Shown: positions 8,197-39,512, counted from the first letter of the stretch. The stretch is 64,000 nucleotides of DNA from Candidatus Aenigmatarchaeota archaeon (GCA_016783545.1 JADHWJ010000006.1:888-64887), one strand, 5' to 3'. The notes: generated by a model from the letters alone, not told the origin. A program made the numbers and translations.

Positions 8197-10677
8197 TTAT
8201 AGACAATCTCTACAATCAGAACATTCACCTGGATCGCAGACATCATTGTCTAAACAACCTGAACATGGTTCTTTCGTACCTGAGTCTTCATATTTACAAT
8301 TAACATAAGGACATCCCTTGCTATCGTGTTCTTCTATGGGATTTCCACCATCCTGCATGCAACCATCTTTCTTTCTTTTCACATCTTCTATTGTTAATTC
8401 GCAGCCACTGTCAAAATCTCTCTCAAATTCCCTTTCAAATGGCTCCATTCTTGGAGGCTCTCTATAATCATCATAAGAAGGCTCATTCTCCGTACGTTTC
8501 ATTGCTTCTGCAAGCAAAGGACCCTGACAATGAGGGAACATTTCCTCAGGGTTTCTCATACCGAATGAATAATCAGGCATTCTGCATGTCATATCCATTT
8601 TTCCGAAAGGTGTCTCAACAAATACATATAATTTGCATTTTCCATCTTCAACACCGTCTATTCTTAATGTTGGACTTGGTTCTTGGCCTGGTCTAGGCTT
8701 ACCTTCTGGATAAAATAACACTCCTGGTGTACATGTTCTAAATGCGTTGTCAAAGCACATACCATCCCTACCACAATCATTCTCATCCCTTTCATCCTCT
8801 ACAACAAACTCTCTTACATCTTTCTCACTTCCAAGCATGAAATAAACTATATCCTTAAGCAAAACATCTTTTATGTATCTCAAATCTTGTCTTATTTCCA
8901 TCATATCATCTATGTTTAGGTCCTGCAACCTGTTTTTTAATTTCTCTTTTATTTCATCAACTTTGCCCTTTGCGGATTCGAACATGCCAGACACACTTCT
9001 GAATCTATCAGCTTCCCATGAACCACTCTGTGCATAATAATTTGCAATGTCTGCTGTTTTTTTGGATAGTCTATCAAAAGTCATTTTCAATTCTTCAAGC
9101 TTAAATGCCATATCAAGGAGTTCGTGTGATTCAGGTATTCTATCCATCTCATCAACATATACTTCGTTCCTATCACCTCTCATTATACATTCAGCAAAAT
9201 CAACATATCCGTTTTCATCCCTTCTGACAACCATTTTTCCACCTGTTCTTTCACATTTTTCATATGTTATCATTGGAGGGTCTCTTGTTTTTTCTTGTTC
9301 AGATGATGCACAATCTATATATTGGCAACCATCATTGTCAAAATACATAATAGCTATCTTTCCCATCTCTCCGCAATACATTTCTTTTTCTTCTACAACA
9401 TGTCTTGGTGGTGCACGTACACAATCCTCACCAAAACCGCGCTCTGAACGTTCTTCGTGCCAGTTCTCATCCACACATTTGACAAATTTACAGCCATGCT
9501 CAAAAATTATCATATCTTTTTGTTTCATGCTCCAGCATTTTTCCTTTACTTCTTGCATTTCTTCATCATCTGGACAATCTTCATTTTCAAAGAATTTATC
9601 TTTTTTATTCCTGAATTCACAATCAATGTACAAACATTTCATCGGCCTTGTATATCTTTCTACAGGCTCACCACCTTTCTCAAAGCACTCCTTTCTTATC
9701 CCTTCTTCGTCTATTGGCTTACAATCGTCATCAGGATGGTCTTTTCTTTCACATTCAACACGCTCCATACCATACTCATCAGTCTCTCTCCTGCAATTTT
9801 CAGGCAATGGACATGATTCGCACTCACATCTTTGGCCATCATCCTTATGTTCCACCCAACAGCTAACATCAGCCCCATCAGGACATGTTTTATAATTTGG
9901 GCACTGAATGCTTTTTTCACAGCCTTCTATCCATTCGCATCTGCAGTCTGGTGTGACAAGTTTTTCACATTCTCCACATTGAACATTACTACAATCCCAT
10001 CCGGTTCCACCGGTTCCGCTACCTCTTTCACAACCATCTATCCATTTACAATAACAACCATCAGAAGCTAGGGTCTCGCATTCTCCACATTCAAGATGAC
10101 AAACAGGTCCGGATCCCGGCACACCAGGCTCTGTAGGACATGATGGTGAACATGATGAACATGAACCTGTTGAAGAATCACAAGAATTGCCACAAGAAAC
10201 TTCAGAACCATCTGAACATGTTGTTTTAGTTGGTGAACATTCTACACCCGCACATTTATCTTCACCAGTGTCATCACCTGTGTCTCCTGAACCTGTATCG
10301 TCTGTACCTGTATCACCACCAGTGTCATCACCTGTGTCTCCTGAACCTGTATCGTCTGTACCTGTATCACCACCAGTGTCATCACCTGTGTCTCCTGAAC
10401 CTGTATCACCACCAGTGTCATCACCTGTGTCTCCTGTACCTGTATCACCACCTGTATCTCCTGAACCAGTATCACCGCTAGTGTCTCCACCTGTATCTCC
10501 TGAACCAGTATCACCGCTAGTGTCTCCTCCAGTGTCTCCTGAACCAGTATCACCGCTAGTGTCTCCTCCAGTGTCTCCTCCTGTATCTTCCTCTGCAGAT
10601 ACTGCTATAAGAGGATAACCAACTAAAAATAGAACTACAAATATCAGAACAAAAAAGGATTTGAAGTTTTTATTCAT
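8197..10677 (-). CDS. secreted Cys-rich protein with N-terminal acidic G-D-T repeat region, unknown function
   Basis: Signal peptide MNKNFKSFFVLIFVVLFLVGYPLIAVSA, then (GDTGGDTSGDTGS)n. Duplicated CGECE..C.C.WI.GCE modules and many paired Cys residues follow. Confidence 0.7.
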   Translation of the reverse strand: MNKNFKSFFVLIFVVLFLVGYPLIAVSAEEDTGGDTGGDTSGDTGSGDTGGDTSGDTGSGDTGGDTSGDTGSGDTGGDTGTGDTGDDTGGDTGSGDTGDDTGGDTGTDDTGSGDTGDDTGGDTGTDDTGSGDTGDDTGEDKCAGVECSPTKTTCSDGSEVSCGNSCDSSTGSCSSCSPSCPTEPGVPGSGPVCHLECGECETLASDGCYCKWIDGCERGSGTGGTGWDCSNVQCGECEKLVTPDCRCEWIEGCEKSIQCPNYKTCPDGADVSCWVEHKDDGQRCECESCPLPENCRRETDEYGMERVECERKDHPDDDCKPIDEEGIRKECFEKGGEPVERYTRPMKCLYIDCEFRNKKDKFFENEDCPDDEEMQEVKEKCWSMKQKDMIIFEHGCKFVKCVDENWHEERSERGFGEDCVRAPPRHVVEEKEMYCGEMGKIAIMYFDNDGCQYIDCASSEQEKTRDPPMITYEKCERTGGKMVVRRDENGYVDFAECIMRGDRNEVYVDEMDRIPESHELLDMAFKLEELKMTFDRLSKKTADIANYYAQSGSWEADRFRSVSGMFESAKGKVDEIKEKLKNRLQDLNIDDMMEIRQDLRYIKDVLLKDIVYFMLGSEKDVREFVVEDERDENDCGRDGMCFDNAFRTCTPGVLFYPEGKPRPGQEPSPTLRIDGVEDGKCKLYVFVETPFGKMDMTCRMPDYSFGMRNPEEMFPHCQGPLLAEAMKRTENEPSYDDYREPPRMEPFEREFERDFDSGCELTIEDVKRKKDGCMQDGGNPIEEHDSKGCPYVNCKYEDSGTKEPCSGCLDNDVCDPGECSDCRDCL
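10262..10595. repeat. in-frame tandem repeats (57-nt and 39-nt units) encoding the G-D-T tract
   Basis: ccagtgtcatcacctgtgtctcctgaacctgtatcgtctgtacctgtatcaccac is repeated at 10266 and 10323. Units of cctgtatctcctgaaccagtatcaccgctagtgtctcc follow from about 10451. Confidence 0.85.
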
Positions 10678-17280: not shown

Positions 17281-17871
17281 TTAAGTTATAAGACTACTTT
17301 TTATATCAGGATCTTTAAAACCTAGAATTCTTCCAAAAGATATCAATTCTGAAGAGCTTCTCATTCCATTCTTCTCAACAGCGCCTGAAACCAACCTAAA
17401 GGGTGTCTTATATTTTATTAAAATTCTGGAAAGTTCTAGCATACTCTTCATTAGATTGCTCCTTGTAAGCTTGTCATTGAAAATTAAATTACTAAAACTG
17501 AAACCTACTGATATTTTGTTCATCTTGCAAAGTCTTGCCATTACCTGATCAAATTGGCACATGGAAGTATCAAAAGGATCCAAAAGCATATCTATTTCAG
17601 GTGTTTCAGAAACCTTTCTGTTAAAGTCCATGTCAACTGATCTTGCAAAAACCAGGTCATGGCTTTCTTTTAGCTTAGTTGCATCTTCTATTTTTTTTGC
17701 TTCAGCTATTGATAATATTTTTACATTGGGAAACTTTTCTCTTAGATTTTCTATATTTTTTAAATCTGTTTCAATGCACAAACCACTGAATCCGAGCTTC
17801 TGGGAAAAGTCCAACATGTTCTCTGCTTCTTTGGGTGTTTCTGATTTTATAAGGAAATCAATAAAGTCCAT
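17281..17871 (-). CDS. rnp3: RNase P protein component 3 (Rpp30)
   Basis: The pattern D...D.V.A.L....N...GFS...L......R.NL...M.....L..KYK.......SGA.EK...R....LIS.G..LG matches archaeal Rpp30 as I recall it from Pyrococcus PH1877. Confidence 0.7.
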   Translation of the reverse strand: MDFIDFLIKSETPKEAENMLDFSQKLGFSGLCIETDLKNIENLREKFPNVKILSIAEAKKIEDATKLKESHDLVFARSVDMDFNRKVSETPEIDMLLDPFDTSMCQFDQVMARLCKMNKISVGFSFSNLIFNDKLTRSNLMKSMLELSRILIKYKTPFRLVSGAVEKNGMRSSSELISFGRILGFKDPDIKSSLIT

Positions 17872-23153: not shown

Positions 23154-23771
23154 TCAGCCGACGATCTCCTCTTGTGGGAGCCGGAGCCGGAGATCATAAA
23201 TGAGCCTCTCCAGGGCTCTAACAGCCTCTTCAGTGCCGACTCCACTACTCAGGGTTTTGTGACCCTGCAAACCTTTCAGTCTCTCAACAATGCCCGGGAT
23301 CGCGTGTTTCGGAATTGTCGTTTCCACTGCTCTGGCGCAGTTAAGCGTGAACTCCTCGAGACCGTTCGCACCAAGTCTCAACCCTTCTTCAAGCCATACC
23401 AGAAGGTTCTTGTGGTATGGCCGCTTGCCCAGCGTCTTCTGCCAATCGATCTCGAGATCTTTGACCTCGGCTGGGTCGAGGTTGTCGCCGGGAGGAAAGA
23501 TCCTCAAAGCCTTGATCGTCGATCTGGGCATGCATGTGACATACACTGTGCCTTCGATATCTTCTGGTGGCTGGATGAGCACAATCCCGGTCAGGACCTG
23601 GCTTGTGCTCTTGACTAGCTCACGATTTTGAGCCAGCCACTCGCACTGAACTGCTAGTATGTCCTCGTGTCGCTCGATCTGCTTGATCGGCCCGCGAACC
23701 GCTCCGTTTCCGATATTAGCGACAACGTCCCGGCCCTTCATTGCATCGCCCAGAATCTCAGTCCATTCCAT
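23154..23771 (-). CDS. hypothetical protein encoded on a G+C-rich island (likely start MEWTEILGD; the ORF extends to 23795)
   Basis: This is the longest ORF in the island. AGGAG lies 8 nt upstream of the ATG at 23771. Composition differs clearly from the neighbouring genes. No recognisable family. Confidence 0.55.
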   Translation of the reverse strand: MEWTEILGDAMKGRDVVANIGNGAVRGPIKQIERHEDILAVQCEWLAQNRELVKSTSQVLTGIVLIQPPEDIEGTVYVTCMPRSTIKALRIFPPGDNLDPAEVKDLEIDWQKTLGKRPYHKNLLVWLEEGLRLGANGLEEFTLNCARAVETTIPKHAIPGIVERLKGLQGHKTLSSGVGTEEAVRALERLIYDLRLRLPQEEIVG

Positions 23772-23860
23772 CGCTCGTCTCCTTTCAAAGACCATCCAAA
23801 GACTAGTACTGAAAAGCCATGGATAATCTTATTCCTAAAAGAACCATTTCTCCTCTGGAA

Positions 23861-26864: not shown

Positions 26865-26914
26865 AGTTCCTATCAAAATCTACTAGGAACTGAATAGTTA
26901 ACGATGTTAACTAT
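26865..26914. promoter_or_regulatory. two palindromes in the divergent promoter region
   Basis: AGTTCCTA (26865-72) pairs with TAGGAACT (26884-91). The second site is the 21-bp palindrome ATAGTTAAC-gat-GTTAACTAT (26894-26914). Confidence 0.45.
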
Positions 26915-26940
26915 ATTATTACTCAAAACAATTTTTTACT

Positions 26941-27339
26941 ATGTTCCGAATAGTTATAGACACTAATCTGATAATTGCAGGCAGGTATAATGACAGGTCA
27001 GCCTCTGCTAAGATTATAGATCTTTGTTTGCAGAAAAAATTACAGCCTGTTTATTCAGATAGAGTTAAGAATGAAAACCAATGGATATTGGACAAAGTAA
27101 AACCCAGCGCTGAATACATGAAGAAAATTTATGTATTTTTTACCAAATGTATATATGTAATGCCTACTGAAAGGATAGATATCTGTTCTGATAATAGCGA
27201 TAATATCTATTTTGAGACCGCTCTGGCAGGCCAGGCACAATATATAATAACCAATGACAGGCATCTTCTGGAACATGACGGTTACATGGGTGTCAGGGTT
27301 AAAAGACCAAATGAATTCTTAAAAGAGGTTAAAATATAA
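26941..27339 (+). CDS. PIN-domain protein (PIN_3 / putative toxin family)
   Basis: Contains IVIDTNLIIAG...S.SAKIIDL...YIITNDRHLL. Length is 132 aa. Confidence 0.7.
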   Translation: MFRIVIDTNLIIAGRYNDRSASAKIIDLCLQKKLQPVYSDRVKNENQWILDKVKPSAEYMKKIYVFFTKCIYVMPTERIDICSDNSDNIYFETALAGQAQYIITNDRHLLEHDGYMGVRVKRPNEFLKEVKI

Positions 27340-27899
27340 TGTTCAAATCAGGCGCTGTTGTAAGAAAATTTGAAGTCAATGGGGAAAAAGTCATTCTTAG
27401 ATATCCAAAAATGTCTGATGCAAAGAACCTTATGAGGCATATAAACAGCCTCATTGATGAGAGAGCAAGGATTATATTAACAAAAAAGGTTACTCTGGAA
27501 GAGGAAAAGAAATATCTGAAAGGTATTATTGATAAGTCTAAAAAAGGCCTGTCAATAGACCTTATCGCCGAAGTTAATGGTGAATTTGCGGGAAAATTCG
27601 ATGTTTTCAGGGAAAGAAATCCTCCTTCAGCAATTGACCATATAGCAAAGTTCGGTCTTGGGTTGAAAAGAAAATACAGGAATATGGGCATAGGAACAGA
27701 GATTTTAAAAGTTCTGATAGAAATTGCAAAAAAGGAGTTCAAAGCAGAAATTATTGAACTTGGGATTATAGCTGACAATGATAGAGCTGTTCATGTATAC
27801 AAAGATAAGATGGGTTTCAGGGAAGTTGGAAGAATACCAAACGGTTACAAGAGAGATGGAAAATACCTTGACAGAGTAATAATGATAAAAAATATATAA
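27339..27899 (+). CDS. GNAT-family N-acetyltransferase (RimJ/RimL-like)
   Basis: Contains RNMGIGTEILKVLIEIAKKEF...GFREVGRIP. Its start overlaps the PIN stop (TAATG). Confidence 0.75.
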   Translation: MFKSGAVVRKFEVNGEKVILRYPKMSDAKNLMRHINSLIDERARIILTKKVTLEEEKKYLKGIIDKSKKGLSIDLIAEVNGEFAGKFDVFRERNPPSAIDHIAKFGLGLKRKYRNMGIGTEILKVLIEIAKKEFKAEIIELGIIADNDRAVHVYKDKMGFREVGRIPNGYKRDGKYLDRVIMIKNI

Positions 27900-28072
27900 T
27901 GGGAACTGTGGGATTATCTTTGGAAGGTTTTTAAATACATTTTATCAATTATAGTTCGTTACCTATAGATATTGTCTTTCATGTTCACAAGTTTCATTTA
28001 ATTTCAAAGAGAATCTTAGGCTTTCTTATTTGATTCTCTATAGAATTGATTTTTTCTCTTGTCTTTTCTTAA

Positions 28073-28145
28073 TCCCCTATAGCATATTTGGTTAATGCGC
28101 TCGGCTGTTCACCGAGAAAAGCAAGTTCGAATCTTGCAGGGGGGC
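28073..28145 (+). tRNA. tRNA-Asn(GUU)-like gene with atypical features
   Basis: Cloverleaf: D arm GCAT/ATGC, anticodon arm CTCGG-CTGTTCA-CCGAG, T arm GCAAG-TTCGAAT-CTTGC. Atypical points are U1-G72, U6-G67, an A7xA66 mismatch and C at position 37. The 3' end runs into CCA. Confidence 0.5.
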
Positions 28146-28570
28146 CAGGTCTTCTCCTGTAGAGGGAAGACAGTGTATCGACAACCGCTGTAATTTAAGG
28201 CTAGGCAGGATAGGACCATGGCCCATGGTGCGAGAGCTGCCTGCAAGGTTGGGGCATCAGGGAGAGGCTCCCTGATTAGCATCCGAACCAGGCGAAAAAA
28301 GGACTCGATGGTCCTTCTACGATTTCTTTAGCTCCCCCAGCGTCGGGAGCCGGAGAAGGTGGTTCCATTCAGTAGTGGGTTCTAATCCCACCCTTCTCCA
28401 TTAACAGTCTCCTTTCAGCACCGGGAAGTCCATACCCCCAATCCCTGGACCTCCTGAACATCACCGGGTCCCTGACATTGACCCAGTTAAGGCCCGATTA
28501 CATAGAGGGCAGGTCGAGAAAGGCGCGGGGGCCATGGGTGAGATCCTCCCCCTCACTCCCTCTGGCCCCT
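28141..28570 (+). ncRNA. X1: unassigned G+C-rich structured RNA candidate (~430 nt) between the tRNA-Asn-like gene and tRNA-Thr
   Basis: No credible ORF. The closing helix is GGGGCCAG (28141-48) with CTGGCCCC (28562-69). Multiple local hairpins include GTCTTCTCC-TGTAGA-GGGAAGAC, ACCATGG-cc-CCATGGT, TCAGGGA-gaggc-TCCCTGA, AAGGAC-tcgatg-GTCCTT and GCTCCC-ccagcgtc-GGGAGC. Strand is assumed from the flanking tRNAs. Confidence 0.45.
28352..28400 (+). other. tRNA-like minihelix (acceptor stem plus T arm only) inside X1
   Basis: GGAGAAGG-(15 nt)-GTGGG-TTCTAAT-CCCAC-CCTTCTCC-A. This gives an 8-bp acceptor-like stem stacked on a 5-bp T-arm with a 7-nt loop. There is no D or anticodon arm. Confidence 0.5.
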
Positions 28571-28574
28571 AAGA

Positions 28575-28649
28575 GCAGATGTAGCTCAGTGGTAGAGCGC
28601 ACTGTTGGTAACGGTGTGGTTGTGGGTTCGATTCCCACCATCTGCTCCA
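28575..28649 (+). tRNA. tRNA-Thr(GGU), genomically encoded CCA
   Basis: GCAGATG TA GCTC AGTGGTA GAGC G CACTG TTGGTAA CGGTG TGGTT GTGGG TTCGATT CCCAC CATCTGC T CCA. Confidence 0.9.
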
Positions 28650-28654
28650 ATTTA

Positions 28655-28727
28655 GCGCACATAGCTCAGTGGCCAGAGCAGAGCTTTCGTAAAGCTCAGG
28701 GCGTCGGTTCGAGTCCGACTGTGCGCT
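28655..28727 (+). tRNA. tRNA-Thr(CGU)
   Basis: GCGCACA TA GCTC AGTGGCCA GAGC A GAGCT TTCGTAA AGCTC AGGGC GTCGG TTCGAGT CCGAC TGTGCGC T. No CCA is encoded. Confidence 0.9.
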
Positions 28728-28729
28728 TC

Positions 28730-28958
28730 AGTGTGTGGTTACTGTGTGGATATGCGGCAACGTGCAACCCCTTCCACCAACAAGGCTCTATTCACCCATC
28801 CTAAAAACCTGGTGATGGGTAGTGTTTTCGCTCTCCATGGGGATAGGACACGCGAACAATAGTCACAACACAGCTCAGCACAAGCACAATGTGTTGTGAT
28901 TCGATTGATACACCTCTTTAAGGTTTAGAGTGAGACCTTGTTTCCCCAACTACACACA
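28730..28958 (+). ncRNA. X2: unassigned G+C-rich structured spacer (~230 nt) between tRNA-Thr and tRNA-Glu
   Basis: The closing helix is AGTGTGTGGTT (28730-40) with AACTACACACT (28948-58), 11 bp with one G-U pair. Internal hairpins are CCCATC/GATGGG, ACAACAC/GTGTTGT and AAGGT/ACCTT. No ORF. Confidence 0.4.
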
Positions 28959-28962
28959 CTAA

Positions 28963-29040
28963 GGTTCCATCGTCTAGCTAGGCCAAGGACACAGGATTCT
29001 CATTCCTGTAACACGGGTTCAAATCCCGTTGGGACCACCA
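28963..29040 (+). tRNA. tRNA-Glu(CUC), genomically encoded CCA
   Basis: GGTTCCA TC GTCT AGCTAGGCCAA GGAC A CAGGA TTCTCAT TCCTG TAAC ACGGG TTCAAAT CCCGT TGGGACC A CCA. Confidence 0.85.
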
Positions 29041-29610
29041 GTACTGGGGTAGGGGCCAGACACCTTAGCGGTGGGGTTTCCGTTTGAGGAGACCTTCTGC
29101 TCCTGCTTCTTTAATTTCGTCGGTGGCCACCGTCGATAGGGAAGGGATGCGAACACTCTAAGTGTAGGTCCCTTTCCGGCCCCTATTGTGAATGACCTAC
29201 TGAAGGAGGTGATGAAAACTGAGACTCATTGTCTATCTCCTGATATGGCTACTGCCAATTAGCCTTCTCAACTGGCACAGTCTTTTGGAGTGTTCCCGAG
29301 CTGTGGCCAGCTCTCATCCTATTGGCGCTGTTTTTATGGGAAGTTCTTGTTGTGACCGTGCGCATGGCTCCAGGCCATGGTCTCGCTGGCCACACGGGAA
29401 TAAGAAATGGTTCAAAGGACCATTGCCTCCTGGCCGGTGGTGATCACTACTGCTATTCAATGGGGGGACATACAAGACCTCTTGAAGCCAATCCAGACTC
29501 TAATAAGCACAGACCTCTGGGAGGAAAATGCAGCATATTGCCAAACCGAGAGAGGAACATTAAAGGGGAGCTTAGACCAACCAGATGCATTGGCTGGTCT
29601 CTCCCATTAT
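29041..29610 (+). ncRNA. X3: unassigned G+C-rich non-coding segment (~570 nt) between tRNA-Glu and gatB
   Basis: A long-range helix TAGGGGCC (29050-57) with GGCCCCTA (29178-85) encloses about 136 nt, including the palindrome CGGTGGCCACCG (29121-32). A 3' composite hairpin GGGAG..AGACCA.CCA-gatgcat-TGG.TGGTCT.CTCCC spans 29566-29605. The ORFs here look spurious. Confidence 0.4.
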
Positions 29611-29664
29611 ATTGTCATTTAAGAGGGATATATAGTTTTAATATTTTACAAACAATATTTAGTT

Positions 29665-31074
29665 ATGGGAATAAAGATAGGGCTTGAAAGTCATGTACAA
29701 TTGATATCAAAAAGCAAGATATTTTGCAGCTGCAAAAACCCATTTGCTTTAAAGGAAGATCCAGAACCAAATACACTTACCTGCCCCACATGTCTAGGAC
29801 TTCCAGGTGCAAAACCTGTGGCAAATAATTATGTAATTGATTCTGCCCTAAAGGCTGCACTTGCCTTTCAAAGTGATGTTTCAGACGAAATGTTCTTCTC
29901 TAGGAAGGGGTATTTCTACCCAGATCAGAGCAAAAACTTCCAGATAACCCAATATGAGGCTCCACTAGCCCTTAATGGGAAAGTAGAGCTAAAGATGGGC
30001 TCTAAATCAAAGCTGGTTCGCCTTAGAAGGCTACATTTGGAAGAGGACCCAGCCAAGATTATTCATATAGGGGGATTAAGTGGTAAAGGTGTGCTTATTG
30101 ATTATAATAGAGCGGGCTCTCCTCTTATAGAGATTGTAACAGAGCCTGATTTTGAAAGTCCTGAAGAGGCAAGGGTATATATACAGAAATTAGAGAGTGT
30201 ATTGGAATATCTTGGTATTTATGATCCAACAGCAATAGGCATAATCAAAACAGATGCAAATATTTCTATGGGTGGTGGAGAACGTATTGAAGTAAAGAAT
30301 ATCACAGGAAGCAAAGATATTGAAAAGGCATTGAAATATGAAATAATAAGGCAAAAAAACCTTCTTAAAAGAGGCCAGAAGCCAGAAAGGGAAACAAGAG
30401 CTTGGAACCCACAACTTGGTGTTACACAATTATTAAGAACCAAAGAAGATGAAGAAGAATATGGTTATATTACAGAACCTGACCTGACTAAGATATCTTT
30501 CAAAAAGAACCAGTTGGATGCTATCAGAAAGGACCTTCCAGAACTTCCTGATGAGAAATATAATAGGTTTGTAAAGCAGTTCAAGCTACCTGGGAAGGTG
30601 GCTGAAAGCATTGTTTCAGAACCTGATCTTGCTGAGCTCTTTGAAAATGTTTCGAAGAAAACGAACCCAAAGCTTGCAGGTACATGGGTATCTGGTTATC
30701 TGAAGAAAACATTGAACTGGCATAATCTAAGGTTTAAGGATTCTGGTATGAATCCAGAATGGATTGTTTCTCTATTAAAAATGTTCCAAACAGGAAAACT
30801 CACTGACAGGGGAGCTGAGATGACTATTAGAAAGATGGTTGAAGAAAAGAAGCCACCTGAACAGATAGTTAAGAAGCATTCCCTAGGAAAGGCTAAAATT
30901 GACCTTGATAAGGTTGTTAAGGCTATTATTGAGAAGAACCAGCAAGCTGTTGAAGATTATAAGAAGGGTGAAGATAAGGCACTCCATTTCTTGATTGGTT
31001 TAGTAATGAGAGAGACCAAGGGCCAGGCAGATGCTGTAGAAATACAAAAAGTTCTTAAGAAATTAGTAAAATAG
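29665..31074 (+). CDS. gatB: aspartyl/glutamyl-tRNA(Asn/Gln) amidotransferase subunit B
   Basis: Contains IGLESHVQL, FCSC, CPTCLGLPGAKP, LHLEEDPAK and a C-terminal YqeY-like domain. Confidence 0.9.
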   Translation: MGIKIGLESHVQLISKSKIFCSCKNPFALKEDPEPNTLTCPTCLGLPGAKPVANNYVIDSALKAALAFQSDVSDEMFFSRKGYFYPDQSKNFQITQYEAPLALNGKVELKMGSKSKLVRLRRLHLEEDPAKIIHIGGLSGKGVLIDYNRAGSPLIEIVTEPDFESPEEARVYIQKLESVLEYLGIYDPTAIGIIKTDANISMGGGERIEVKNITGSKDIEKALKYEIIRQKNLLKRGQKPERETRAWNPQLGVTQLLRTKEDEEEYGYITEPDLTKISFKKNQLDAIRKDLPELPDEKYNRFVKQFKLPGKVAESIVSEPDLAELFENVSKKTNPKLAGTWVSGYLKKTLNWHNLRFKDSGMNPEWIVSLLKMFQTGKLTDRGAEMTIRKMVEEKKPPEQIVKKHSLGKAKIDLDKVVKAIIEKNQQAVEDYKKGEDKALHFLIGLVMRETKGQADAVEIQKVLKKLVK

Positions 31075-38849: not shown

Positions 38850-38888
38850 TAAGTATAAAACACTTAAATTTTAATTAAAGTGGAAATT

Positions 38889-39512
38889 ATGGGAGAATTT
38901 GCTTCTGTTCCGATGAAAGACCCTAGGGGATATCTTAAACCAGCCCAGGCTAACAAGTTGATTAATGCTACAGGTAATATAAGAGATAGATTAATATTCC
39001 AGCTTATGTATAGATGCGGAAGAAGGGTATCTGAGGTTCTCCTGCTTACTGAAGATGATATATTATGGAACGATAGAAAGATAATATTCACAATTCTTAA
39101 AAGGAAAAGACCGGTTAAAGAATTAAAACCAGTTGATTCTGAGACCATAGAACTTCTAAGGCGTTATCTGAACAAAAAGGGTAGGGTAAAGGGATTAAAA
39201 AGGCATAGAAAAGACAGCAGACTTTTTCCTATAACAAGGCAATATGTTTTCAAGCTTGTAAGAAAACTTGGCAAGGAAACAGGGATAGAAATGGTTGGTT
39301 TAAAGAAGATCCATCCACATCATTTCCGTCATAGTTTTGCTGTCCATGCTGTAAGATCAGGAGTAAATTCTGCTGAGGATCTTAGGAAACTTCAGATGTA
39401 TATGGGTCATGCAAACATATCAACCACTGCACATTATCTACAGTTCTCTCCAGATGAACTAAGAAGCCTTGTAGATGGTATGTGGAAGAAAGGAAAAAGA
39501 AATGAAAAATGA
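38889..39512 (+). CDS. tyrosine recombinase, short Xer-like (catalytic domain only); the ORF is open from GTG 38880
   Basis: Contains RDRLIFQLMYRCGRRVSEVLLL, HPHHFRHSFAVHAV and LQMYMGHANISTTAHYLQ (R..H-x-x-R..H/Y pattern). Confidence 0.8.
   Translation: MGEFASVPMKDPRGYLKPAQANKLINATGNIRDRLIFQLMYRCGRRVSEVLLLTEDDILWNDRKIIFTILKRKRPVKELKPVDSETIELLRRYLNKKGRVKGLKRHRKDSRLFPITRQYVFKLVRKLGKETGIEMVGLKKIHPHHFRHSFAVHAVRSGVNSAEDLRKLQMYMGHANISTTAHYLQFSPDELRSLVDGMWKKGKRNEK

Follow-up and report, generated by a model that had tools for sequence, protein, structure and literature searches.

A G+C-rich, ORF-free tRNA island between GNAT and gatB in an Aenigmatarchaeota MAG, with candidate structured RNAs in its spacers

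Analysis of a 64,000-nt stretch of an Aenigmatarchaeota MAG (hereafter the window) indicated that the non-coding island of about 1.5 kb at 28073-29610, in which several spacer segments that fold are interspersed with three normal tRNA genes and two tRNA-like elements, is probably a purely RNA-coding, polycistronic tRNA cassette accompanied by one or two orphan structured RNAs. We place the probability of this reading at roughly 0.5.

Extent and insertion of the island

The high G+C content that the initial annotation had judged by eye was borne out by a computed profile, with 0.523 for 28073-29610 vs 0.350 in the rest of the window, and both edges of the block were sharp. The left edge coincides exactly with the 5' end of the first tRNA-like gene and the right edge with a hairpin. 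The tRNA genes of the island have G+C contents of 0.51-0.56, and the three spacers between and beyond them have contents of 0.561 (X1), 0.468 (X2) and 0.511 (X3). The island is flanked by two protein genes:

27339-27899, plus strand: GNAT acetyltransferase gene, left flank (Pfam Acetyltransf_1/3/4)
29665-31074, plus strand: gatB, right flank (Pfam GatB_N, GatB_Yqey), identical to MBL7206509.1 of a Candidatus Aenigmarchaeota MAG

The GNAT gene is a full-length homologue of the GNAT gene that adjoins gatB in relatives, with 41% identity (E = 1e-46) to the copy in locus L090, where the GNAT stop and the gatB start overlap as ATGA. Since 13 related loci have a gap of -6 to +71 nt between the two genes, vs 1765 nt here, the block of ~1.7 kb is a lineage-specific insertion into a conserved GNAT-gatB pair. 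No such island was found upstream of gatB in 80 GTDB loci and five contigs from closer relatives (gatB identity 77-64%). The closest relative (gatB 77%) carries different genes at this junction, and the insertion site is therefore variable.

An ENA contig assembled independently from another sample (L085, ERZ24794671) has 99.8% identity to window positions 26904-28847. It crosses the AT/GC junction and continues through the tRNA-Asn-like gene, an X1 that is identical over its full length, and the two tRNA-Thr genes into the first 118 nt of X2, which differ at one position. The organism is present in the ENA samples that underlie ERZ24794671, ERZ24794672 and ERZ24794676. As this contig reproduces the left junction, an assembly chimera is excluded for the left two-thirds of the island (28848 to gatB lies outside L085).

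tRNA genes and tRNA-like elements

ARAGORN and Rfam concurred in placing four tRNA-type genes in the island, all on the plus strand, in the order tRNA-Asn-like, X1, tRNA-Thr, tRNA-Thr, X2, tRNA-Glu, X3 that had been proposed by the initial annotation. All four scored above the RF00005 gathering threshold (29 bits) with a readable anticodon. These genes, a further tRNA-like element and a candidate promoter were located as follows:

27930-27937, plus strand: TTTAAATA, candidate cassette promoter, an exact match to the TATA-box consensus of archaea within the 173-nt AT-rich leader
about 28073-28147, plus strand: tRNA-Asn(GUU)-like gene, CCA encoded (ARAGORN; Rfam 44.8 bits, the alignment being marked with mismatches)
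28352-28399, plus strand: tRNA-like minihelix in X1, with an 8-bp acceptor-type stem (GGAGAAGG/CCUUCUCC) and the T arm GUGGG-UUCUAAU-CCCAC
28575-28649, plus strand: tRNA-Thr(GGU), canonical, CCA encoded (ARAGORN; Rfam 71.6 bits)
28654-28729, plus strand: tRNA-Thr(CGU), canonical, without encoded CCA (ARAGORN; Rfam 68.8 bits)
28963-29040, plus strand: tRNA-Glu(CUC), canonical, CCA encoded (ARAGORN; Rfam 57.9 bits)

The tRNA-Asn-like gene is aberrant, having U1·G72, an acceptor stem of only 6 bp with A7 unpaired and one position of the model deleted, a 4-nt variable loop and C37, vs A37 in the tRNA-Asn of a relative (L023). It thus lacks the 7-bp acceptor, the purine at position 37 and the 5-nt or long variable loop of a functional decoder. 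The X1 minihelix has neither D arm nor anticodon arm; it gave a weak Rfam tRNA-Sec match (16.9 bits) that spans the acceptor and T arm only, and its T arm has 86% identity to that of tRNA-Thr(GGT).

The T arm of tRNA-Glu is the same as in Aenigmatarchaeota relatives, with the 19-nt ACACGGGTTCAAATCCCGT common to five of them (L018, L028, L031, L037 and L055). CCA is encoded in three of the four island tRNAs and none of the four has an intron; among the relatives examined, CCA was encoded in 0/5 tRNA-Glu genes and several tRNAs had introns. This contrast hints that the whole cassette was imported. Because the tRNA-Glu genes of relatives carry introns, hidden intron-containing or split tRNAs were also sought in the spacers, which revealed no further Rfam tRNA match and, by eye, no convincing T-loop-like hairpin.

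The putative assignment of TTTAAATA as the cassette promoter is based only on its position, as the TATA pattern occurred 22 times across the window vs 22 expected, i.e., without enrichment. A weaker CTATAGAA lies at 28039-46, ~30 nt 5' of the first tRNA-like gene, and there is no exact TATA consensus within the island.

Folding of the spacers

The structure of the spacers was assessed as the thermodynamics of a single sequence, and the following segments were distinguished:

28148-28351, plus strand: X1a, run of near-perfect hairpins; moderately structured, z = -2.56 (plus) vs -2.68 (minus)
28400-28560, plus strand: X1b, C-rich; no significant structure, z = -0.69, with 40/200 shuffles folding as well
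28730-28962, plus strand: X2, 233-nt spacer, candidate structured RNA closed by a 10-bp end-to-end helix
29046-29190, plus strand: X3a, 145-nt multi-branched domain that starts 6 nt past the tRNA-Glu CCA and is closed by copies C and D of the motif described below
29191-29560, plus strand: X3b, G+C-rich tail; no significant structure, z = -1.98, with 6/100 shuffles folding as well
29566-29605, plus strand: terminal composite hairpin, -19.8 kcal/mol, at the G+C-rich/AT-rich boundary and followed by AUUAUAUUGUCAUUU

The predicted fold of X3a, a five-way junction with an MFE of -67 kcal/mol, had z = -4.83 on the plus strand with 0/200 shuffles as good, vs z = -3.32 and -52 kcal/mol on the minus strand. 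Within it, a pyrimidine-rich linker of 23 nt is single-stranded in the MFE fold and partly paired in the centroid. X2 had z = -3.90, and in the strand comparison -3.59 (plus) vs -1.89 (minus). Folds of 70 background windows of 200 nt gave a mean z of -0.15 (sd 0.93, minimum -2.15), and tiles of the island reached -2.96 and -2.90. Both X3a (-4.83) and X2 (~-3.9) lie beyond all 70 background windows and beyond a foreign-gene control (23154-23795, z about -2 on both strands). Based on these predicted folds, X3a would be the best candidate for a discrete stable RNA. Stable RNAs usually show an excess of G over C, and among the spacers such an excess occurs only in X3a (GC skew +0.12).

The proposal of the initial annotation that the spacers hold structured RNAs therefore stands for X2 and X3a, which have strong z scores and favour the plus strand, and not for X1b and X3b, which are unremarkable; X1a folds equally well on both strands. 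The composite hairpin at 29566-29605 was present as annotated, but it was not called in an intrinsic-terminator scan because it has no T run of at least five. The only T5 run within the island is at 29331-35, in X3b. An SD-like AAGGAGGUGAU at 29203-13, also in X3b, pairs in the fold with a downstream CCUCCU-containing stretch (about 29420-34).

These data bear on a serious rival, which we regard as a realistic possibility: that the block is an inert recent import from a donor of ~50-58% G+C (an archaeon or a mobile element) in which only the tRNAs matter, the spacers being G+C-rich since they have not yet drifted to the host AT bias and their folds arising as a side effect of palindromes and G+C. 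A second island of high G+C lies 4.3 kb upstream (23154-23795) and is a bona fide foreign protein gene, an ORFan with GC1/2/3 of 0.62/0.40/0.62 and no homologue. Together with the insertion into GNAT-gatB, its presence in the same genome means that the high G+C of the island could reflect recent import and not selection for structure. Consistent with import are also the lack of structure in the G+C-rich X1b and X3b, the lack of strand bias in X1a, the other genes at the junction in the closest relative, and the encoded CCA and missing introns of the tRNAs.

Import alone accounts poorly for X3a and X2, whose z scores exceed those of the background windows and the foreign-gene control with a preference for the plus strand, for end-pairing helices exactly at tRNA boundaries, for a G+C-rich block that begins exactly at a tRNA-like 5' end, and for a tRNA-Glu T arm of Aenigmatarchaeota type. 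Moreover, spacers of 230-570 nt that are free of ORFs would be out of the ordinary for a prokaryotic donor with a compact genome, and no donor was found among phages, plasmids, 5.8 billion proteins, JGI metagenomes or IMG/VR. If the spacers are inert, the island would still be a clear case of a conserved gene pair separated by foreign non-coding DNA. It would also warn against taking every G+C-rich island of an AT-rich genome for a structural RNA gene, given that another such island in this window is a protein gene.

Several of the same observations weigh against the preferred reading of the block as an RNA cassette. X1b and X3b are as G+C-rich as the rest yet unstructured, which selection for RNA structure does not explain; X1a is strand-neutral, and the spacers other than X3a have no G-over-C excess; the T5 run at 29331 could end transcription ahead of X3b; and there is other foreign G+C-rich DNA in the genome, alongside a tRNA CCA/intron pattern that hints at import.

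Long-range helices and a repeated motif

The helices that had been annotated for X1 (28141-48 with 28562-69) and X3 (29050-57 with 29178-85) were present exactly at these positions. A helix was also present in X2, but its 3' strand at 28948-58 is AACTACACACA and does not end in ACT as had been annotated; the true helix is 10 bp, 28731-40 with 28948-57. The end-to-end closure of X1 could not be upheld in the form proposed, as the tRNA-Asn-like gene uses 28141-48, the 5' strand of the helix, for its acceptor 3' strand, discriminator and CCA. The X1 closing helix and the Asn-like fold are therefore mutually exclusive.

The closing helices of X1 and X3 were found to consist of four copies of one 11-nt motif, TAGGGGCCAGA:

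28138-28148, plus strand: copy A (AGGGGGGCCAG), degenerate TAGGGGCCAGA, overlapping the tRNA-Asn-like 3' end
28561-28571, minus strand: copy B, exact TAGGGGCCAGA, 3 nt 5' of tRNA-Thr(GGT)
29050-29060, plus strand: copy C, exact TAGGGGCCAGA, 5' side of X3a
29175-29185, minus strand: copy D, TAGGGGCCAGA with one mismatch, 3' side of X3a

With no more than one mismatch, TAGGGGCCAGA occurs three times in the 64 kb, in each case at a spacer boundary within the island. The four copies permit two pairing schemes, A:B with C:D or A:D with B:C. The MFE fold of the full island adopts the latter, in which B:C is a perfect 11-bp stem (28561-71 with 29050-60) that encloses the Thr-Thr-X2-Glu core and the end helix of X2 is retained. 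When the terminal 25 nt at either end of each spacer were compared with 2000 dinucleotide shuffles, the p values for end pairing were 0.01 for X1 (only if the tRNA-Asn-like 3' end was included), 0.0125 for X2 and 0.04 for the whole of X3.

The shared termini of X1 (428 nt) and X3a (136 nt), which are in inverted orientation, raise the question of whether these are two MITE-like non-autonomous elements with terminal inverted repeats TAGGGGCCAGA...TCTGGCCCCTA that landed beside tRNA genes. Like MITE-type transposons, both are short non-coding units of differing length with the same terminal inverted repeat, and there is an added likeness inside their 3' ends (TCCCT-CTGGCCCCTA vs TCCCTTTCCGGCCCCTA). 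We consider this very unlikely. Unlike MITEs, neither element has a target-site duplication, no further copy occurs elsewhere in the 64 kb (the other 62 kb of the window), and one terminus, the degenerate copy A, lies within a tRNA-like gene; in addition, the interiors of X1 and X3a are unrelated and the ends of X2 differ. The only match to the motif pair in IMG/VR (L088) looks like chance, being within a 309-aa ORF on an unrelated contig of 57% G+C with no other similarity.

Known RNA families and homologues

At gathering threshold, Rfam identified only tRNAs from the island in a search of the whole 64-kb window. A search of the isolated spacers with Rfam at E <= 10 gave no match to any of the identities that the initial annotation had listed for checking (RNase P RNA, SRP RNA, C/D and H/ACA sRNAs, introns). 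RNase P models (RNaseP_arch and type T; types A, M and T), which describe the P4 helix with CR-I and CR-V and the P1-P3 core, had no match at E <= 10 with lax filters on either strand of 27900-29750 or of X1 by itself. Neither did the archaeal SRP (7S) RNA model, with its helix 8 tetraloop and symmetric loop and its Alu-domain helices 2-4, on the 1.85 kb and on X1 alone. There was no match to 5S rRNA (RF00001), which has a three-way junction with loop C and loop E motifs, X3a folding as a five-way junction, nor at E <= 10 to Rfam group I or group II introns, small ribozymes or H/ACA RNAs. In a C/D box sRNA, a terminal stem joins the C (RUGAUGA) and D (CUGA) boxes, with C'/D' boxes inside and guides of about 12 nt. 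The island has a single C box (29209), for which the nearest CUGA is 3 nt off and there is no terminal stem, and Rfam snoRNA matches reached only 16-21 bits vs cut-offs of 40-80. Strict BHB motifs, in which two 3-nt bulges enclose a 4-bp helix and are flanked by further helices, numbered 11 vs 6-18 in shuffles, none of them at spacer boundaries, and the closing helices are uninterrupted.

Three likenesses to known RNAs were dropped when covariance models gave no support: CCGAACC...CAGG to 5S/SRP RNA, CUGUAAU to the SRP Alu domain and GGGAAGUCC/CAUAGAGGGCAGG to RNase P RNA.

It is highly improbable that one of the spacers represents a strongly diverged RNase P RNA or SRP RNA. The window does encode Rpp30 (17281-17871), as had been annotated, so an RNA-based RNase P is present and its RNA must exist somewhere, and neither this nor the SRP RNA was found in the 64 kb. 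In some methanogens, 5S and 7S RNA genes lie inside tRNA or rRNA operons. In X1, GGGAAGUCC resembles CR-I; however, it lies in the unstructured X1b, where a correctly ordered P4 partner is missing. Models of the RNase P, SRP and 5S RNAs had no match even at E <= 10, and 64 kb is a small part of the genome, so that both genes most likely lie elsewhere.

Searches for homologues of the spacers in 85 related gatB loci, made with blastn, with nhmmer and with a covariance model built from the one X3a sequence, matched only tRNA-Glu and the query itself. Nothing was found in JGI metagenomes with degenerate patterns back-translated from spacer frames plus a tandem tRNA-Thr anchor, no spacer homologue was found in IMG/VR, and blastn matches in phages and plasmids were confined to tRNAs. 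L085 was the sole second copy found of any spacer sequence. A search of the literature on DPANN or Aenigmatarchaeota ncRNA revealed nothing specific.

Coding signal

The island contains no credible ORF, in agreement with the initial annotation. Its longest ORFs (108-121 aa) cross tRNAs or enter gatB. Codon periodicity relative to background was 0.79 in X1 (p = 0.59), 1.10 in X2 (p = 0.38) and 1.23 in X3 (p = 0.30), against 6.6 in GNAT, 3.4-4.1 in gatB and 2.8 in PIN as coding controls, and a period-3 signal was also absent from the spacers in sliding 180-nt windows. A six-frame Pfam search of the island had no match. Six-frame segments of the island had none at E <= 10 among 5.8 billion proteins (a blastx-type test that also covers spurious ORFs on homologous islands), a collection in which no gene-caller product was recorded from this stretch. 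It is scarcely credible, then, that the spacers are protein-coding or degraded coding DNA, despite a 140-codon stop-free frame (29243-29662) and a 71-aa ATG ORF (29407-29622), or that they are an assembly chimera, which L085 excludes for the left two-thirds of the island.

Predicted processing of the probable RNA cassette

Transcription, processing, RNA stability and any function of the RNA cassette are predicted as follows. One plus-strand precursor would extend from the promoter in the AT-rich leader to the hairpin/AT boundary at ~29610, although it may stop earlier, at the T5 run (29331). The enzymes RNase P and RNase Z would cleave at the three canonical tRNAs (Thr-GGU, Thr-CGU and Glu-CUC), and probably also at the aberrant Asn-like gene and the X1 minihelix, freeing the intervening pieces. 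X2 and X3a, which are compact with paired ends, would be the likeliest of these to survive as small, stable orphan RNAs. As X3a directly follows tRNA-Glu, RNase Z would generate its 5' end. The four copies of TAGGGGCCAGA could form stems of the leader-trailer type, either closing X1 and X3a singly or as the 11-bp stem around the Thr-Thr-X2-Glu core; X1b and X3b would probably be unconstrained spacer.

If X2 and X3a are stable RNAs, they would be orphan families in a phylum of symbiotic archaea that has hardly been studied. Their production as passengers of tRNA processing would be the cheapest route possible, and an insertable cassette would deliver them. A further speculation, which we consider rather unlikely, is that the island represents a new mobile or modular DPANN RNA-gene cassette. 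Its tRNAs and minihelices would be cleavage marks for undescribed stable RNAs (X2, X3a and perhaps X1a), the shared TAGGGGCCAGA stem would bound units as a processing or recombination signal, and the location at GNAT-gatB (transamidosome) would mean that the RNAs might act on tRNA-Asn or tRNA-Glu metabolism.

Comparison with known systems

In AT-rich genomes of archaea, G+C-rich islands reportedly mark structural RNA genes, as described by Klein, Misulovin and Eddy in 2002 in a screen that was established for hyperthermophiles. The island is similar in its contrast of ~17 percentage points, in being ORF-free and in its co-linearity with known RNA genes. It differs in that its tRNAs are only 51-60% G+C, so that strong thermal selection is not evident, in that about half of it (X1b and X3b) has no fold signal, and in that another G+C-rich island in the window is a protein gene.

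The long-range helices joining the ends of transcribed units recall the leader-trailer stems of archaeal and bacterial rRNA operons, and tRNAs and tRNA-like minihelices as would-be cleavage marks recall mitochondrial tRNA punctuation and MALAT1/mascRNA. Unlike these systems, the island has no BHB at the boundaries and no rRNA, and its processing is predicted.

In the DPANN archaeon N. equitans, RNase Z cleaves dicistronic tRNA-sRNA precursors (tRNA-Val/sRNA8) (PMC3491384). In these precursors and in plant tRNA-snoRNA genes, the small RNA lies a few nt past the tRNA 3' end on the same strand with no promoter of its own, as does X3a. The small RNAs there are guides of the C/D box type, 50-70 nt long, whereas X3a (145 nt) and X2 (233 nt) are without a proper C/D arrangement. 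If the cassette reading is correct, the co-processing of tRNA and sRNA seen in Nanoarchaeum would extend to longer, non-guide RNAs.

Composition and genomic context of the G+C-rich island

The block between the GNAT gene and gatB (28073-29610, hereafter the island) was found to have a G+C content of 52.3% versus a window mean of 35.4%, in agreement with the richness noted by eye in the initial annotation. Its edges are abrupt, with 29% G+C directly upstream and 33-38% directly downstream. ARAGORN and Rfam concordantly identified four tRNA-type genes, all on the + strand, beyond which there was no Rfam match at gathering score anywhere in the 64 kb.

tRNA-type genes of the island, with Rfam scores
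28072-28146, +, Asn(GTT), 44.8 bits
28575-28649, +, Thr(GGT), 71.6 bits
28654-28729, +, Thr(CGT), 68.8 bits
28963-29040, +, Glu(CTC), 57.9 bits

These genes (51-56% G+C) alternate with three spacers: X1, between the Asn-like gene and the first tRNA-Thr (56.1%), X2, between the second tRNA-Thr and tRNA-Glu (46.8%), and X3, after tRNA-Glu (51.1%).

The gatB gene product was identical to MBL7206509.1 of a Candidatus Aenigmarchaeota MAG, the nearest non-self gatB was 77% identical and those following at most 66%, indicating that the lineage is thinly sampled. In 13 related loci (L001, L002, L003, L009, L015, L017, L019, L026, L028, L031, L042, L046 and L090) a full-length GNAT homologue lies directly upstream of gatB, with gaps of -6 to +71 nt; L090 (gatB 65%, GNAT 41% identity) has the order gatA-GNAT-gatB with an ATGA stop/start overlap. 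As the GNAT-gatB distance in the window is 1765 nt, the island has been inserted into a gene pair that is conserved and probably co-transcribed. Seen across many Aenigmatarchaeota, the adjacency suggests that the pairing of an acetyltransferase with tRNA-dependent amidotransferase genes is conserved; we know of no explanation for it. In the closest relative (L081, 1-681; gatB 77%), GNAT is replaced directly upstream of gatB by two small, unrelated Lys/Arg-rich ORFs with no Pfam match on record, so that the site upstream of gatB varies within this clade. Downstream of gatB, relatives usually carry tRNA-Arg(UCG), often with tRNA-Glu farther on, a set and arrangement unlike the island's, and the spacer between two tRNAs in L018 was not G+C-rich.

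On the left flank, a PIN_3 domain gene (26941-27339) overlaps the start of GNAT (27339-27899) by one base (ATGA). A tblastn search (E <= 1e-8) detected no PIN homologue in the 16 loci matching both GNAT and gatB, and the gene may be another local addition.

tRNAs and tRNA-like elements

The genes for tRNA-Thr(GGU), tRNA-Thr(CGU) and tRNA-Glu(CUC) are canonical, with U33, A37 and 7-bp acceptor stems, and the T arm and adjacent bases of tRNA-Glu share a 19-nt identity with five Aenigmatarchaeota relatives. The Asn-like gene is aberrant in carrying U1·G72, an acceptor stem of only six pairs (A7 is unpaired), a 4-nt variable loop and C37. Normal tRNAs have a purine at position 37, which is A in a relative's tRNA-Asn. 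Given these features and its retention of U8, A14, G18-G19 and a good T arm, the Asn-like gene looks, from its sequence, more like a tRNA-shaped processing substrate than a decoder. A second tRNA-like element lies within X1 (28352-28399) and combines an acceptor-type stem of 8 bp with a stacked T arm (UUCUAAU loop; 86% identity to the T arm of tRNA-Thr(GGU)), with neither a D arm nor an anticodon arm.

All four island tRNAs lack introns, and all but one of them encode CCA. In the relatives examined, CCA is missing from each of five tRNA-Glu genes, and one or two introns interrupt several of the tRNAs. These introns occur at canonical and non-canonical positions (L028 11099-11216, L031 9968-10059, L037 5560-5649 and L039 3804-3922); tRNA-Glu apparently has two in L028 and one, in the D loop, in L031. 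Several of these intron-bearing genes were overlooked by ARAGORN.

Proposed closing helices and a repeated motif

The helices that had been proposed to close the spacers were located at their assigned positions, with the exception that the 3' strand of X2 (28948-58) reads AACTACACACA; the true X2 helix is 10 bp (28731-40 with 28948-57). End-to-end pairing surpassed shuffles modestly for X2 (p = 0.0125) and whole X3 (p = 0.04); X1 did so (p = 0.01) only if taken together with the tRNA-like 3' end. Because the residues on the 5' side of the X1 helix (28141-48) are those of the acceptor 3' strand, discriminator and CCA of the Asn-like gene, the helix and the Asn-like cloverleaf cannot form together. 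The X1 and X3 helices are made of four copies of a single motif, TAGGGGCCAGA, of which no further copy with at most one mismatch was found elsewhere in the 64 kb.

Copies of the motif
Copy A, 28138-48, +, degenerate
Copy B, 28561-71, -, exact
Copy C, 29050-60, +, exact
Copy D, 29175-85, -, one mismatch

Two pairing schemes are possible, A:B with C:D, as initially proposed, or A:D with B:C. The whole-island minimum-energy fold selected the latter, in which B:C forms a perfect 11-bp helix around both tRNA-Thr genes, X2 and tRNA-Glu. There was no bulge-helix-bulge at the spacer boundaries (11 strict motifs in the island versus 6-18 in shuffles).

Fold strength of the spacers

Spacer folds, with z-scores of fold energy against dinucleotide-preserving shuffles
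X1a, 28147-28351, z -2.56 on +, -2.68 on -
X1b, 28400-28574, z -0.69 on +
X2, 28730-28962, z -3.90 / -3.59 on +, -1.89 on -
X3a, 29046-29190, z -4.83 on +, -3.32 on -
X3b, 29186-29612, z -1.98 on +

Seventy 200-nt windows drawn at random from outside the island had a mean z of -0.15 (sd 0.93, minimum -2.15), and a control, the G+C-rich protein gene of foreign composition, folded with z of about -2 on either strand; island tiles reached -2.96 and -2.90. Against this background and control X3a and X2 are conspicuous, X1a is marginal, and X1b and X3b are unremarkable. None of 200 shuffles folded as well as X3a (MFE -67 kcal/mol on + versus -52 on -), which alone among the spacers has the excess of G over C typical of stable RNAs. 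X1a is a series of near-perfect hairpins with neither strand favored, and whole X1 reached z -2.5 only with the 3' end of the Asn-like gene (-1.9 without it). The original proposal of three novel stable RNAs is borne out only in part: X3a and X2 are good candidates and X1a is doubtful, with no evidence for X1b or X3b.

A candidate RNA cassette and its alternatives

The original observation is real, and was sharpened by these analyses. We give a probability of about one half to the insertion being a working polycistronic RNA cassette. Its transcription would start in the AT-rich leader, where an exact TATA consensus (27930-37) is followed by a weaker one ~30 nt ahead of the first gene. The transcript would then be cleaved by RNase P and RNase Z wherever a tRNA or tRNA-like element occurs (the window encodes Rpp30), and X2 and X3a would persist as stable RNAs with paired ends. 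Such processing has a precedent in the tRNA-sRNA precursors of N. equitans (PMC3491384). The cassette is an orphan finding, and would gain interest if expression or homologues were shown.

A reading that we favor less is that the cassette was recently acquired from a foreign source, with the tRNAs as its only part of consequence and a G+C content that is simply the donor's. Consistent with this are the insertion of the block into a conserved gene pair, the lack of structure in X1b and X3b despite their high G+C, and tRNA features atypical for the phylum. In addition, a second island (23154-23795, -; 58% G+C) clearly encodes a protein, the 213-aa ISS36_02795, and its composition is foreign (GC1/2/3 0.62/0.40/0.62; period-3 signal 7.2 × background); two independent ENA contigs confirmed where it lies. 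The protein had no Pfam, NCBIfam or PHROG family match and no homologue but itself among 5.8 billion proteins, and its sequence looks like that of a recently acquired foreign ORFan. The two readings are compatible to some extent, since stable RNAs could also come from an imported cassette.

MITE-like elements, with the motif as common terminal repeats, are an unlikely explanation. A divergent RNase P or SRP RNA in the spacers is very improbable: Rfam searches at E <= 10 of the island and of X1 alone, which covered the RNase P, SRP, sRNA and intron families that had been suggested, gave no RNase P, SRP, 5S, intron or riboswitch match, and only sub-threshold snoRNA-like matches around a single C box at 29209. 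Searches of 85 related loci by blastn, nhmmer and an X3a covariance model matched tRNA-Glu only, matches in phage and plasmid collections were confined to the tRNAs, and JGI metagenome and IMG/VR scans returned nothing credible. The island's only C-box-like sequence, GUGAUGA, is overlapped by an 11-nt perfect Shine-Dalgarno-like string, AAGGAGGUGAU (29203-29213), which has no usable start codon downstream and pairs in the predicted fold with a CCUCCU-containing stretch ~215 nt downstream (~29420-29434).

That the spacers are coding DNA or a chimera is scarcely credible. The absence of credible ORFs described initially was upheld, as the spacers had no codon periodicity, Pfam match or protein match; the longest island ORFs (at most 121 aa) cross tRNAs or extend into gatB.

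Period-3 signal relative to background
X1, 0.79 ×, p = 0.59
X2, 1.10 ×, p = 0.38
X3, 1.23 ×, p = 0.30
GNAT (coding control), 6.6 ×, p < 0.002
gatB (coding control), 4.1 and 3.4 ×, p = 0.002
PIN (coding control), 2.8 ×, p = 0.018

In 180-nt sliding windows the island signal was at most 1.3, except for one window at 2.1 (flanking genes 2-3.9), which speaks against a frameshifted pseudogene too. Degraded coding DNA was likewise not detected when six-frame translations were compared to Pfam (no family at E <= 1), or when all stop-free segments of at least 28 aa, joined, were compared to 5.8 billion predicted proteins (no match at E <= 10, self included). The absence of a self-match indicates that gene callers never called an ORF here. 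An assembly chimera was excluded for the left two-thirds of the island, since an ENA contig assembled independently from a different sample (L085, from ERZ24794671) matches 26904-28847 at 99.8% identity. L085 runs from PIN and GNAT across the AT/GC junction and the Asn-like gene, includes X1 in full and the two tRNA-Thr genes, and reaches 118 nt into X2.

At 28602-28604, on the 5' side of the anticodon stem of tRNA-Thr(GGU), the window has CTG and L085 (1699-1701) has TCC, which would disrupt one stem pair and alter two others; with L085 coverage only about 1.7x, the difference may not be a strain variant but an error.

Other features of the window

A 210-aa phage integrase family protein is encoded ~9 kb downstream of the island (38880-39512, +). 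An 826-aa ORF (8197-10677, -) contains tandem DNA repeats that are roughly 60 nt long and enriched in G+C (10260-10600); its Cys-rich stretches and N-terminal hydrophobic segment suggest a repeat-bearing surface protein.
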